Part shown: in pieces, positions 60,233 to 62,804 of the stretch
Layout: the number at the start of each line of letters is the position of its first letter
Position numbering within the stretch: position 1 is the stretch's first letter
Origin: Clostridiaceae bacterium Marseille-Q4149
GTDB taxonomy: Bacteria; Bacteroidota; Bacteroidia; Bacteroidales; Bacteroidaceae
Assembly: GCA_963644855.1 (NCBI GenBank)
Contig: CAVIQL010000001.1
Coordinates: forward strand, 29,105-93,104
Length of the DNA stretch: 64,000 nucleotides
Direction: 5' to 3'
Notes under the pieces: model-generated
What the model was told of the DNA's origin: nothing
Database searches by the model: none
The model's input: the letters and a program-made list of their open reading frames with translations, nothing else
Made by a program: the position numbers and the translations under genes

Positions 60233-61357
60233 TTATCTTCCGCCTTTTCTCCGATTACATTCCCGGCACAACATTTGGCAGTTCTCCTCAATGGTGCGTC
60301 CGCCTTCGCGCCACGGAGTGATATGGTCGCCTTCCATGAATTCCATGTCGAGTTCTTTGCCGCAGATGGCGCACTTGTGGTTTTGTCTTTCCCATGCGGC
60401 AAGTTTTGTTTGCATATCAAAAACGCGCAGATCGAGATATCGTTCGTCGCCCGTGAGCACATAGGGAATTATTCCGCCGGGCTTTTGTATTTCGCTGTCT
60501 TTCATGAGCGCGGAAATCCGTTTGCCAATAGCCGAAACATCGAGTGTGTCTTCATGAAAACGGTCGTAGAAATAAGCCCAATCGAGTCCTTTCATAATCT
60601 TCTTGAAATGTTTCATGTCGAAGTTCGTAATGGCCCAGTTTAATACGTTTTGAAAATAGCTCCAAAGGTTGTTGGCGTTAGGGTCGTGCTGATGTTTCGC
60701 CATATATCCCACTATGGTTTGCCCGTGTCCCTCGCGCGTTTCGTGTTGTGCAATCCATTCGAGCGCTTTTTTCAGAAAATCCTGGCGGTTGGGCGTGCCG
60801 TTCACCAAATCTTTGCCCAAGCGATACGCGCCGCAGTTGTTTTTTGAAAAATGACGCTTTGCATCGCTCACAAAAGGGCCTGCATAGACAGCATTGTTTA
60901 TTTCCTGTTCGTTAAGAGGCTTTCCCGCTATGTTTATTGTTTTGAACCATTCCAATTTTTCCGAAGCTTCTCCCTCGCAGATATACACTGTGAGCGGATA
61001 GGTAAGTATTCGCTTTTGTATGTCGGCGGGTTGGTTGAAAAAGTTCTTGAACTCGAAACTGAATTTCCCCGCTACGTATTCGCAAATCGAGAGGGTGCGT
61101 TGCTGGCCGTCCATAACTTCGTAAGGACATTCGGCATCGTCGCTGCGCTTCACCCAATACATCACATTCAAAGGGTAGCCCTGCATCACAGTATTGATTA
61201 CGGCTTGCTGTTCTTTCTCATTATATATAAACTCACGCTGATAGGGCGGACGAATGTCGAGTTTGCCGTTGTATCCGCGCACTCCCTGTTCGTCGTTGTT
61301 GGAGTAGTCGCGCGTTATATCGCCAACGGTAACTTCTATCTGCTTTATGGTCATCAT
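60233..61357 (-). CDS. DUF262 (ParB/Srx-like, GmrSD-N-type) domain protein with a C-terminal HNH nuclease motif, copy B
   Basis: 374 aa. N-terminal [10 protein letters not shown]...[11 protein letters not shown] (DGQQR motif). C-terminal [10 protein letters not shown]...[31 protein letters not shown] (HNH). Confidence 0.8.
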   Translation of the reverse strand: [374 protein letters not shown]

Positions 61358-61429
61358 GATATCAAAGTATTTTTGTTTGTATTGAGTTTTTAGATGATTT
61401 AAAAAGGATGTTGTTGCGCCACATCGAAA

Positions 61430-62470
61430 TTATTTTCTGCGGCGAATGAAAATCCGCTTGTAAATTCCTTTTCCATTAACAACTGGTGCGTCTCGTCTGG
61501 GAAAAGGAATCTCGTAGTCTTTAAGCATTCCGTCTCCTCCTCTATCTGTAGTCCAAATAATTTCAAATTGGTCGGGACAATATTTGTCGAGGAATGTGAT
61601 TGGCACGCCCATAACACCATCGTAATCGCAGGGAATGTCTGCTGTGCGGCTTACTTCGATAGCATTGTAATTATCATACCGAGGGTATTCGTCTGGAGAG
61701 TAATGGCATACCAAATCCAAGTAATCACTTCGCTTTGGTATCTCGAGGTTTGTAAACCACATCACTCCCGAAACTCTTATCATGCCTTTGCGATGGTCTC
61801 CTGCCGTAGCTTTGTCTTCGTAAGGCGACATAAAATGTGCGGCAGTGCCTTTGAAACCATATCCCAACCACAATTGATTGTTCTTGATATAGGGAAAGAT
61901 TTCCTTGTAAGTAATTGCGTTTTGATTTCCCACGATAATAAATTTCTTGTTGTGCTTCATGAGTTGCGATACATATTCGCGAAACAACGAAAAAGGCGGA
62001 TTTGTTACCACTATGTCGGCTTCTTTTAGAAGTTCCACGCATTCTGTGCTGCGGAAATCTCCTGTTTGCAGTGTGGAAATCACATTCCGATCGTTTTGCA
62101 ACAGATAGCGCACGTCCGACAAGTCAACGGCTCCGTCGCCATTGAGGTCTTTTACTTCCGTAATCTCAACCTTGTAAGCTATTTTCTTTGGTTCGCTGTC
62201 GAATTCCTCGAAATGTATCAACAATTCGTTGCCTTGCACCGGCGAACCGTTATAACAGGTGCAAATAAGCTTCTTCAAACCAAGCTGATTGAAGCGTAGC
62301 GCAAAATATTTGAAGAAATTGCTCTCGAAAGGGTCATCGCAGTTACACAGAATGGTTTTGCCGCGAAAATGTTGCCAATAATGTTGAAGTTCGCGCTCAA
62401 TGTCGACGAGTTGGGTGTAGAACTCGTCTTTTTTTGCCGTCTTTGCGGCACCAAGATGTTTGTTTGCCAT
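61430..62470 (-). CDS. EcoRI-methylase-like N6-adenine DNA methyltransferase, copy B
   Basis: MANKHLGAAKTAKKDEFYTQ...ILCNCDDPFESNFFKYF...VVTNPPF. Start moved to ATG 62470 by alignment with copy A. Confidence 0.8.
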   Translation of the reverse strand: MANKHLGAAKTAKKDEFYTQLVDIERELQHYWQHFRGKTILCNCDDPFESNFFKYFALRFNQLGLKKLICTCYNGSPVQGNELLIHFEEFDSEPKKIAYKVEITEVKDLNGDGAVDLSDVRYLLQNDRNVISTLQTGDFRSTECVELLKEADIVVTNPPFSLFREYVSQLMKHNKKFIIVGNQNAITYKEIFPYIKNNQLWLGYGFKGTAAHFMSPYEDKATAGDHRKGMIRVSGVMWFTNLEIPKRSDYLDLVCHYSPDEYPRYDNYNAIEVSRTADIPCDYDGVMGVPITFLDKYCPDQFEIIWTTDRGGDGMLKDYEIPFPRRDAPVVNGKGIYKRIFIRRRK

Positions 62471-62790
62471 AGCAGACCGATAGTTTATAGCCGCTATCAA
62501 TCCGCTAAAACGCAAAAAAGGCGTGTGCCTCTTATCGCGTTTAGCACGGGGCGAGCCTCGGAATGGAGCCCCAGTCTATTTATAAGAATGCAGCACGCCT
62601 ATAGCGTGGGCATTGCATTATATAAATAGAACAGAGGTTCTCACACGAGCCGCCTGTCACATATTATTTCCGTGCTTGTTATTCCAATTGAGTTTCCGAG
62701 GCTCTTGGCTAAACGCGAAATAATAGCGAATGCTTATGATTTTACCAAAAAGATATCGCGGGATAGATCTCTAAGACCATATCTTTCCGC
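62471..62790 (-). ncRNA. Conserved structured 5' leader / candidate ncRNA of methyltransferase operon B
   Basis: Same architecture as 1412-1742. Helices: 62575-62583/62622-62630, 62587-62591/62610-62614, 62594-62598/62604-62608, 62662-62670/62717-62725, 62536-62545/62708-62717. Start-codon hairpin 62470-62483/62494-62507, whose three mismatches become G-U pairs only on the minus strand. Confidence 0.55.
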
Positions 62791-62796
62791 TATTTG

Positions 62797-62804
62797 CAAA
62801 AATA
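62797..62804 (-). promoter_or_regulatory. -7 promoter box TATTTTTG for operon B
   Basis: The minus strand reads ...atatttcgggaaatcgcTATTTTTGcaaatagc, homologous to the block upstream of copy A. Confidence 0.5.

Follow-up and report, generated by a model that had tools for sequence, protein, structure and literature searches.

A stretch of 64,000 nucleotides (nt) from Clostridiaceae bacterium Marseille-Q4149 (GTDB family Bacteroidaceae; contig CAVIQL010000001.1, positions 29,105 to 93,104), hereafter the window, contains two cassettes, A and B, in which a DNA methyltransferase (MTase, or M) gene is followed by the gene of a nuclease (R) with a DUF262 domain. The locus raises two questions: what kind of restriction-modification (R-M) system such a pair may form, and what role may be played by the ~270 nt that stand ahead of each MTase gene. 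R-M needs tight regulation to spare the cell's own DNA, and the devices known to control it are controller proteins (C-proteins), autorepression by the MTase, and antisense RNAs. The Bacteroidales dominate gut and rumen communities and are genetically hard to work with, largely owing to their R-M systems. We put at about 60% the probability that the cassettes are operon-encoded R-M systems in which the MTase sets the specificity and the leader acts in cis as a switch. All the evidence is comparative, and the homologues come mostly from metagenome-assembled genomes.

Two diverged cassettes with one layout

An earlier note on the window had described two minus-strand copies with one shared layout, and the open reading frame (ORF) maps and Pfam agree with it, positions included (Table 1). 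In A and B alike, a -7 box is followed by a leader of ~270 nt, an MTase of family PF13651, and a nuclease that joins DUF262 (GmrSD_N) to HNH. The fragment of the copy A nuclease that lies within the window aligns with residues 2-115 of copy B at 60% identity, the DGQQR motif included, and the two MTases are 58% identical. Such values argue against a recent duplication, as had been noted, and point to an old split: A and B are chromosomally fixed cassettes of one R-M family, and their divergence is ancient. At the nucleotide level, the leaders are 70.7% identical, compared with 64-65% for the coding DNA. The MTase of copy B starts at MANKHLG, since a TTG 15 codons upstream is unsupported by homologues.

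Some details of the first description did not hold. The supposedly short and conserved spacer between the two genes measures 36 nt in A, 72 nt in B, and 12-15 nt in many relatives, and its likeness in A and B amounts to little besides an A-rich run. That the copies bracket the window carries no demonstrated meaning. On the other hand, the window scans agree with the note that neither tRNAs nor mobile-element genes accompany the cassettes: there is no tRNA within the 64 kb and no integrase, recombinase or other mobility gene near either copy. The ORF maps reveal no C-protein gene or helix-turn-helix ORF in either cassette, and no conserved ORF between promoter and MTase.

The leader is a conserved folded RNA

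The earlier note had mentioned a structured leader in passing, and this leader proved to be the most unusual part of the cassettes. The leaders of A and B have a 31-nt identical run within the ~270 nt before the MTase starts. A 27-nt motif taken from this run has two exact matches in the window, with 0 expected, and is found without change in 13 related loci, ~265 nt ahead of the MTase start. A profile search gives two sites in the window, both of them cassette leaders (E 1e-69 and 1e-76), and 158 sites in 199 loci. The twofold occurrence in the window is not due to chance. In most related loci, a TTTG box is found at the equivalent position upstream.

We aligned 110 distinct instances of this leader, termed class I, with MAFFT (alignment A3; sequence only, no structure fitted), and the pair counts given here come from the same sequences from which the helices were derived. 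The long-range helix A, which closes the core (A3 columns 28-39 / 285-293), is paired in 98% of the cells, and 5 of its 9 pairs show compensatory changes (e.g., UA:49 / CG:48). Helix B (columns 49-56 / 265-272) is paired in 99%, with compensatory changes in 7 of 8 pairs, two of which separate the copies of the window (GCGUAGGA/UCCUACGC in A and GCCUCGGA/UCCGAGGC in B). It is crossed by a pseudoknot helix (columns 249-253 / 277-281; 97% paired), whose second pair varies as AU:47 / GC:41 / GU:18. Three further segments can pair in two mutually exclusive ways, either as a seg1:seg2 hairpin (columns 201-205 / 215-219; 94% paired) or as a long-range seg2:seg3 helix (columns 214-223 / 308-318; 94% paired, with compensatory changes in 8 of 10 pairs). 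The last element is a terminal hairpin (columns 375-385 / 416-425; 94% paired) that ends 0-11 nt (mode 3-4) before the start codon in 86 loci, irrespective of the downstream gene.

Across all helices, 94-96% of the cells are paired, a figure that drops to 31-44% when the partners are slid by 1-3 columns. Double-sided changes are seen in 26 pairs, compared with 13-14 in shuffles, and none of the 500 shuffles reached this number. On the operon strand there are 336 G.U cells and only 70 A.C cells, which indicates that the fold is read from an RNA transcribed in the direction of the MTase gene. The predicted fold of the copy B leader (minimum free energy -98.4 kcal/mol, z -5.1) contains helices A and B as well as the inner and the terminal hairpin. 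These results show a conserved RNA fold in the leader, which includes long-range helices, a pseudoknot, helices that exclude one another, and a hairpin right next to the AUG. None of the 4227 families of Rfam 15 matches the window at gathering thresholds, and in E-value mode the two leaders give matches with E 2-9, which is the chance level. We found no description of the class I leader in the full-text literature, where most subscription journals fall outside coverage.

Two other interpretations of this region were tried and rejected. A leader peptide or C-protein is at odds with the lack of a conserved ORF, with an internal AUG-UGA pair that is not conserved, and with indels that do not come in triplets alongside covariation. 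As for an invertible promoter, comparison of the 400 nt upstream with the leader in 101 loci gave inverted repeats with a mean of 10.8 matches, and 10.7 after shuffling; on the strength of this shuffle result, a 15-nt repeat at copy A is taken as chance.

Leaders precede many kinds of R-M and defence genes

The exact 20-nt 5' box has at least 120 matches in a collection with one genome per species, those listed being all in Bacteroidales-type assemblies, and since 20-nt scans catch close variants only, the true distribution of the leader is probably wider. The matches listed belong to Prevotella/Segatella, Muribaculaceae, Paludibacteraceae, and Bacteroides rodentium, and a few leader-bearing contigs are in bins named Clostridia or other Firmicutes. 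Cultured carriers include Segatella copri, Xylanibacter ruminicola KHT3, Prevotella sp. ne3005, Hallella faecis, and B. rodentium. Judging by contig names, two or three leader loci occur in each of the assemblies SRR11489746_bin.78, RGIG4329, Sheep_1_mag_34, and UBA6429, and the window has two. In 2.9 million viral contigs the leader was matched once, on which ground a phage origin was rejected. This lone viral leader (IMG/VR contig, L200 944-3445) is followed by a pair of Dam-like MTase genes in succession and by a third, short ORF.

Class I leaders precede a PF13651 MTase in 80 of the 102 loci that have enough downstream DNA. Identity to the window goes down to 33% for the MTase and 27% for the nuclease in these 80 loci, with the 20-nt box still exact. 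The other downstream genes code for Type I HsdM, Type III Mod, HSDR_N proteins, an HSDR_N_2+N6_Mtase fusion, N6_N4 and D12/Dam-like MTases, and R.Eco47II. Two loci (L109 and L127) have the leader ahead of a DUF4268 protein that matches the PADLOC candidate PDC-S11 (E 4e-138); hence, the leader is not confined to classical R-M genes. Four class I downstream proteins of 775-826 amino acids (aa), with NPPY/NPPF motifs, lack matches in Pfam and PADLOC (L090 4793-7600, L110, L140, and L190) and may be uncatalogued fused R-M or defence enzymes.

Where Prevotellaceae cassettes have no class I leader, they carry another conserved leader, termed class II, of ~230-270 nt, which starts with AGCGTTTGCTGTTATTCGG. 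Its 5' box, GCGUUUGCUGUUAUUCGG, resembles the class I box GCAUUCGCUAUUAUUUCG, and it has a similar AAGAACCUAGGAAAUUC element. It also has a covarying long-range helix of its own, a canonical terminator hairpin with a U run, and a hairpin close to the start codon. Class II leaders were found at 114 loci, and in 76 of the 100 informative ones they precede an M+DUF262-HNH cassette; the remaining downstream genes include those of an MmeI-family Type IIG enzyme, PLD+SNF2 proteins, and N6_N4 and N6 MTases. The class I profile matches the 5' domain of class II colinearly in 24 of 106 sequences (E 0.001-0.03), with four matches in shuffles, and the two classes are probably related. The window itself contains no class II leader and no further cassette remnants, the weak class II matches lying only over the MTase coding start. 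Class I and class II thus head many kinds of R-M and defence operons in Bacteroidales.

Some leaders are followed by other genes. A conserved protein of ~330 aa (MPNKELSPACIDIREDDL...), with no Pfam match, is found after the class II leader at three loci (L207, L217, and L231), a position that suggests an unrecognised restriction or defence protein. For a minority of leaders, the downstream genes, judged by eye, look unrelated to defence (glycosyltransferase-, acyltransferase-, GNAT-, or MBOAT-like), or no ORF follows (L088, L086, L136, L198, L273, L288, and others). Such leaders may be remnants after cassette loss, or they may belong to a wider regulon.

MTase modules are exchanged under a near-constant nuclease

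We compared 102 distinct M+R pairs, together with copy B. The entropy profile of the MTase has three peaks, v1 (aa 76-105), v2 (aa 203-238), and v3 (aa 301-335, all in copy B numbering), and that of the nuclease has no comparable peak. Pairwise identity of the nuclease correlates closely with that of the MTase core (r 0.91) and of v1 (0.81), in contrast to v2 (0.25) and v3 (0.11). In 179 pairs the nucleases are >85% identical and yet v2 is <35% identical. The modules often differ in length (24-51 aa for v2 and 9-82 aa for v3) where the nuclease stays 91-97% identical. Clustering gave 16 v2 types and 36 v3 types in 66 combinations; a single nuclease cluster (≥75% identity, n=50) includes 7 v2 types, 25 v3 types, and 30 combinations.

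The same exchange can be followed at one chromosomal site. Three related genomes (85-88% nucleotide identity) carry a cassette at the position of cassette B, and relative to the window their nucleases are 93-94% identical, their MTase cores 91-95%, and their v2 94-100%, whereas v3 is 31-38% identical. Three different v3 sequences are thus found at this site in four genomes, including the window. All three closest genomes carry cassette B there, so that none of them offers an empty site that would mark the boundaries of the insertion.

These data show free recombination of v2 and v3 beneath a nuclease that hardly changes. The pattern argues for a target specificity borne by the MTase, in the manner of Type I and Type III systems. 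Since changes in v2 and v3 are not mirrored in the nuclease, the latter most likely lacks a matched sequence reader of its own. If v2 and v3 set the methylated site, a nuclease with a fixed reader could not outlast such swaps, and it would either depend on the MTase for its targets or have a relaxed specificity. Copies A and B are likely to have different specificities because they differ in both v2 and v3. The earlier note had suggested such a difference from the most divergent segment of the two MTases; this segment is present in both copies exactly as quoted there, as is the HNH motif of copy B, and it corresponds to v2, a hypervariable module of the family, which makes the suggestion plausible.

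The gene pair is a common module

A scan of the one-genome-per-species collection yielded 579 relatives of the nuclease, and we inspected the best 80 loci. In every one of these with enough upstream DNA, a PF13651 MTase gene lies directly 5' of the nuclease gene on the same strand. Conservation of this neighbourhood had been named beforehand as a check, and its absence as a refutation, which these loci clearly contradict. The linkage extends over Bacteroidota, Campylobacterota (Helicobacteraceae, Sulfurimonas, and Sulfurovum), Neisseria perflava, Thioglobus, Patescibacteria (Saccharimonadales and Campbellbacteria), Verrucomicrobia, and Treponema. The pair is also borne by plasmids of Staphylococcaceae, Chryseobacterium, Sulfitobacter, Variovorax, Aeromonas, lactobacilli, and actinobacteria, some of them as small as 7.5-11 kb; in pH8C110P-cfr, M and R overlap by four bases, through their stop and start codons. 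A search of protein clusters (90% identity) gave at least 8000 at E ≤ 1e-20, every candidate scored being within this threshold, mostly from gut and rumen metagenomes. The pair is therefore a two-gene module that is very common, both across phyla and on plasmids, and it is horizontally mobile. This MTase family had been described as usually orphan, which is not so in this clade, where it is paired with a nuclease in hundreds of loci. We found no experimental study of a PF13651 + DUF262-HNH pair in the full-text literature, whose coverage of subscription journals is poor.

Pfam bears out the assignment of the proteins to the EcoRI-like MTases (EcoRI_methylase, PF13651), DUF262, and HNH. Both MTases match the PADLOC profile MTase_II along its whole length (PDLC03297; E 3e-117 for copy B and 5e-124 for copy A), and the copy B nuclease matches REase_II (PDLC03418) over profile positions 1-369 of 372 (E 1e-120). 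Given these profiles, defence finders in their current form would call each cassette a Type II R-M system. The earlier view that the layout is not a textbook one thus needs qualification, as PADLOC already scores the pair as a Type II nuclease and MTase. In this sense the M+R pair is already known, being catalogued as Type II R-M, and the novelty lies more in the leader. None of the three proteins belongs to an NCBIfam family, the one similarity there being an HNH likeness to IscB and Cas9d far below cut-off, and at NCBI the plasmid homologues are named 'adenine-specific methyltransferase EcoRI family protein' and 'DUF262 domain-containing protein'.

The copy B nuclease has three parts: an N-terminal DUF262/GmrSD_N domain that includes DGQQR, a helical middle, and, at the C-terminus, an HNH domain with CxxC...CxxC, which matches PF01844 (HNH) and PF14279 (HNH_5). 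Members of the family show no variation, or next to none, in DGQQR, in the DH...N...N of the HNH, and in the first Cys of either CxxC pair. Pfam returns GmrSD_N and HNH only, with no match to DUF1524 (GmrD), superfamily 2 (SF2) helicases, or PD-(D/E)XK nucleases. Weaker PADLOC matches concern NsnA, PD-T4-2_A, and, for the HNH part only, mREase_IV (E 6e-4). Among solved structures, single-sequence and profile searches matched the nuclease to HNH domains only (4h9d, Cas9, IscB-like, and McrA), leaving its N-terminal 300 aa, and the whole MTase, without a match; BrxU and SspE structures gave no match at the sequence level. An AlphaFold2 model of the nuclease, built on a shallow alignment, has a mean pLDDT (the model's confidence score) of 57.5 and is usable at residues 1-135 only, with no usable model of aa 140-320. 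Searched with Foldseek, it gave weak matches to ParB/Noc/Srx (sulfiredoxin) folds, none with E < 0.001, and likewise weak ones to BrxU/SspE (E ~0.3, from this poor model). The ParB/Noc/Srx matches are merely consistent with the Pfam call of DUF262 and provide no independent evidence.

A proposed mechanism

Under the reading that we favour, with specificity set by the MTase and a leader that acts in cis, each cassette would form a single operon with a Bacteroidetes promoter, an untranslated leader of ~330 nt, an EcoRI-like N6-adenine MTase, and a DUF262-HNH nuclease. The MTase would mark self DNA at a site fixed by v2 and v3, and the nuclease would attack unmarked DNA, taking its choice of target from the MTase, or from the methylation state in a complex with the MTase. 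The same logic is found in Type I and Type III (Mod/Res) systems and in SspABCD-SspE. Cleavage would depend on nucleoside triphosphates (NTP) through the ParB/Srx-like DUF262 module, the HNH being the catalytic part.

The likeliest role of the leader is that of a cis-acting attenuator or riboswitch-like switch, and traits expected of such devices appear to be present, namely a covarying structure and exclusive helices coupled to a U-tract and to the start codon. Its core (5' box, helices A and B, and pseudoknot) may be a sensor that binds a ligand or a host factor; S-adenosylmethionine (SAM) or S-adenosylhomocysteine (SAH) is an obvious candidate effector, on biological grounds only. In the ON state, seg1 would pair with seg2, a pairing of seg3 with a fourth segment (seg4) would take three pairs from the terminal hairpin, and expression would be permitted. 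In the OFF state, the seg2:seg3 helix would form ahead of the U-tract and the 10-bp hairpin at the AUG would stay intact, with transcription attenuated and/or initiation blocked. Shine-Dalgarno pairing is generally thought to play a minor part in Bacteroidetes initiation, so that folding right at the start codon should make a difference. Class II would follow the same logic with a compact terminator instead. Several R-M systems of one cell might be co-regulated through the shared leader core.

Such a leader would resemble known attenuators and riboswitches, such as the T-box and SAM-I, in its structured 5' region, pseudoknot, exclusive helices, U-tract or terminator, and structure at the start codon. 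It would differ from them in having no Rfam 15 family, in controlling R-M and defence operons, and, for class I, in lacking a compact terminator. We know of no riboswitch for R-M or defence operons, and the literature searches brought up none. C-proteins control the expression of R-M operons (PMC8053105), and with them, as with antisense RNAs, the leader would have its presumed purpose in common. In contrast to both, it would act through the fold of the mRNA leader, with no C gene, and it is common to unrelated R-M types.

Alternative explanations

The cassettes might be orthodox Type II systems, in which the nuclease reads its own fixed sequence and the hypervariable MTase segments are either diversifying (e.g., against phage inhibitors) or neutral, indel-prone loops. 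They do have the adjacent and co-oriented m6A (N6-methyladenine) MTase with NPPF motif, the separate HNH nuclease, and the plasmid mobility of Type II systems; the REase_II profile is matched end to end and MTase_II by both MTases; and a two-gene M-R layout with a short spacer or overlap is typical. However, v2 and v3 are replaced as a whole, across the range of lengths given above, under nucleases that are 91-97% identical, and v3 is swapped in place within orthologous cassettes. A one-sided change of this kind should kill if the segments set specificity and the two readers were independent, and the nuclease has no hypervariable segment that could follow. A ParB/Srx-like DUF262 NTPase module at the N-terminus, as in GmrSD, SspE, and BrxU, is moreover atypical for Type IIP enzymes and, to our knowledge, no feature of the orthodox ones. 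We thus consider an orthodox Type II system unlikely. The shuffling of MTase modules brings the cassettes closer to Type I and Type III systems: the modules are swappable, two of them vary independently, like the target-recognition domains (TRD1 and TRD2) of HsdS, and the nuclease has an NTPase module. In these respects the cassette appears to evolve like systems with specificity in the modification subunit. It differs from them in its EcoRI (PF13651) family MTase and in the lack of a separate S subunit, and the dependence of its nuclease on the MTase is one that we infer; having no helicase and no PD-(D/E)XK, it falls outside Type III.

The DUF262 domain invites comparison with systems of another kind. 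It is the N-terminal module of GmrSD, BrxU, and SspE (PMC4619093, PMC12707154), where, complete with DGQQR, it is fused to a nuclease of His-Me/HNH type as in the cassettes, and SspE pairs it with a self-modification module (PMC9646914, PMC12707154). The nuclease could then be a GmrSD-like Type IV enzyme or an addiction toxin, and the MTase an epigenetic or anti-restriction enzyme, or an antitoxin-like contact partner. The weaker matches to NsnA and PD-T4-2_A go in this direction, and so does the presence of the cassette on the small plasmids, where addiction would help. Yet an m6A-cutting nuclease would be suicidal with an m6A MTase next to it, M precedes R without exception across phyla, and the best full-length profile is REase_II, mREase_IV reaching the HNH part only. 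The cassette nuclease is also shorter (~370 aa, compared with ~560-600 aa) and ends in a canonical zinc-ribbon HNH (PF01844) rather than DUF1524. With such a C-terminus and a constant link to an m6A MTase, the cassette does not belong to GmrSD, and we regard a Type IV or addiction role as very improbable. The leader, for its part, could be a DNA site for the recombination or insertion of R-M cassettes, or a trans-acting RNA (antitoxin or decoy). One element heads unrelated R-M types, as would be expected of a shared docking site, recombination of TRD modules and of cassettes is clear, and a few leaders lack an R-M gene behind them. We regard this as improbable. The excess of G.U over A.C on the operon strand points to RNA and not to duplex or cruciform DNA. 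The hairpin always ends within 0-11 nt of the AUG, the spacing between the leader and the upstream -7 box is constant, a terminator-like hairpin is part of class II, and cassette B is at the same site in three related genomes; there is no integrase or recombinase nearby, and the inverted repeats flanking the promoter are no better than shuffled ones.

Several observations weigh against MTase-set specificity and a cis-acting leader switch. For the switch, seg3:seg4 is paired in only 85% of the cells, and class I has a U-tract after its long-range helix and no compact terminator. A further helix, C (UAUUAUUUC/GAAAUAAUA; 95% paired), lacks compensatory changes and would have to cross both helix A and helix B. 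About 7-8% of the leaders precede non-defence genes or no ORF, and the homology of the two classes is weakly founded, on the shared 5' box and marginal matches of a hidden Markov model (E 0.001-0.03). For the specificity, v2 and v3 might be surface loops with no role in it, and the part of the nuclease at aa 140-320 could conceal a degenerate or relaxed DNA reader. The PADLOC label REase_II suggests, too, that REBASE curators see the nuclease as an ordinary Type II enzyme.

If the proposed function is correct, a large, pseudoknotted leader common to Type I, II, IIG, III, and other defence operons would add a new layer to the control of such genes in Bacteroidales, and the leader is a candidate for a new class of riboswitch or protein-binding RNA. 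A modular MTase combined with a constant DUF262-HNH nuclease suggests a compact system of two genes whose specificity can be exchanged, which bears on the classification of R-M systems, on the prediction of methylation motifs in metagenomes, and possibly on programmable nucleases. A broader proposal, which we make tentatively and hold to be somewhat doubtful, is that classes I and II form a single riboswitch-like RNA superfamily, the sensor of a previously unrecognised regulon, through which one signal governs most R-M operons of Bacteroidales and several of their other defence operons. The signal could be a metabolite such as SAM/SAH or a stress- or phage-derived factor. In this proposal M + DUF262-HNH is also a distinct type of R-M whose ParB-like NTPase-HNH nuclease is aimed by an MTase with two exchangeable modules.

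Features of the window

Table 1. Position of cassette and leader elements, numbered from the first letter of the window
Feature	Coordinates	Strand	Evidence or remark
Copy B -7 box, Bacteroidetes-type putative promoter, TATTTTTG	62797..62804	-	TAnnTTTG match, 60 nt 5' of leader
Copy B class I leader RNA, 5' box to pre-AUG hairpin	62471..62736	-	nhmmer E 1.6e-76
Leader B 5' box, invariant, GCAUUCGCUAUUAUUUCGCG	62714-62733	-	
Leader B helix A, long-range, closes core, GCGUUUAGC / GCUAAACGC	62708-62716 / 62537-62545	-	
Leader B helix B, GCCUCGGA / UCCGAGGC	62695-62702 / 62555-62562	-	
Leader B pseudoknot helix, crosses helix B, GGGGC / GCCCC	62568-62572 / 62548-62552	-	
Leader B switch, seg1 CACGC	62604-62608	-	
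Leader B switch, seg2 GGCGUGCUGC	62590-62599	-	
Leader B switch, seg3 GCACACGCC	62520-62528	-	
Leader B U-tract after seg3	62514-62519	-	
Leader B terminal hairpin, GAUUGAUAGC ... ACUAUCGGUC	62475..62502	-	adjoins MTase AUG
Copy B MTase, m6A DNA methyltransferase, 346 aa	61430..62470	-	PF13651 E 2e-144; NPPF motif
Copy B nuclease, 374 aa	60233..61357	-	PF03235 E 7e-17 + PF01844 E 7.5e-14
Copy B 3' hairpin, 13 bp, putative terminator	60115..60144	.	terminator-like scan; T/A runs at flanks
Copy A -7 box, TATATTTG	1748..1755	-	TAnnTTTG, 64 nt 5' of leader
Copy A class I leader RNA	1412..1683	-	nhmmer E 1.1e-69; alignment A3 row 23
Leader A 5' box	1661-1680	-	
Leader A terminal hairpin	1416-1449	-	
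Copy A MTase, m6A DNA methyltransferase, 343 aa	380..1411	-	PF13651 E 1.6e-135
Copy A DUF262 nuclease, N-terminal 114 codons	2-343	-	60% identity to copy B; window edge cuts the rest

The neighbours of the cassettes in the window are genes for Beta_elim_lyase, YtxH, 3-keto-disaccharide hydrolase, and RecA. The 3' hairpin of copy B is common to the nuclease gene and a convergent gene and is probably a bidirectional terminator that closes the cassette.

A dispersed short repeat, AAACAATGTCWGA, often within TTTAAAAAAGGTCYGAYATTATTTAAAAAA-like palindromic units, has 10 copies in the window, compared with 0.35 expected. Its sites include 1828-1840, 5610-5651, 16266-16278, 28489-28501, 36172-36184, 52060-52072, and 62935-62976. 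Eight of the nine copies examined are intergenic. The repeat occurs upstream of both cassettes and also beyond recA, and so is not specific to the cassettes; it could be a repetitive extragenic palindromic (REP)-like element or serve a global regulator as its operator. On the minus strand at 1850-1890, upstream of copy A, AATAACCGATATTTTTTAAA is duplicated in tandem immediately upstream of one of these repeat units.

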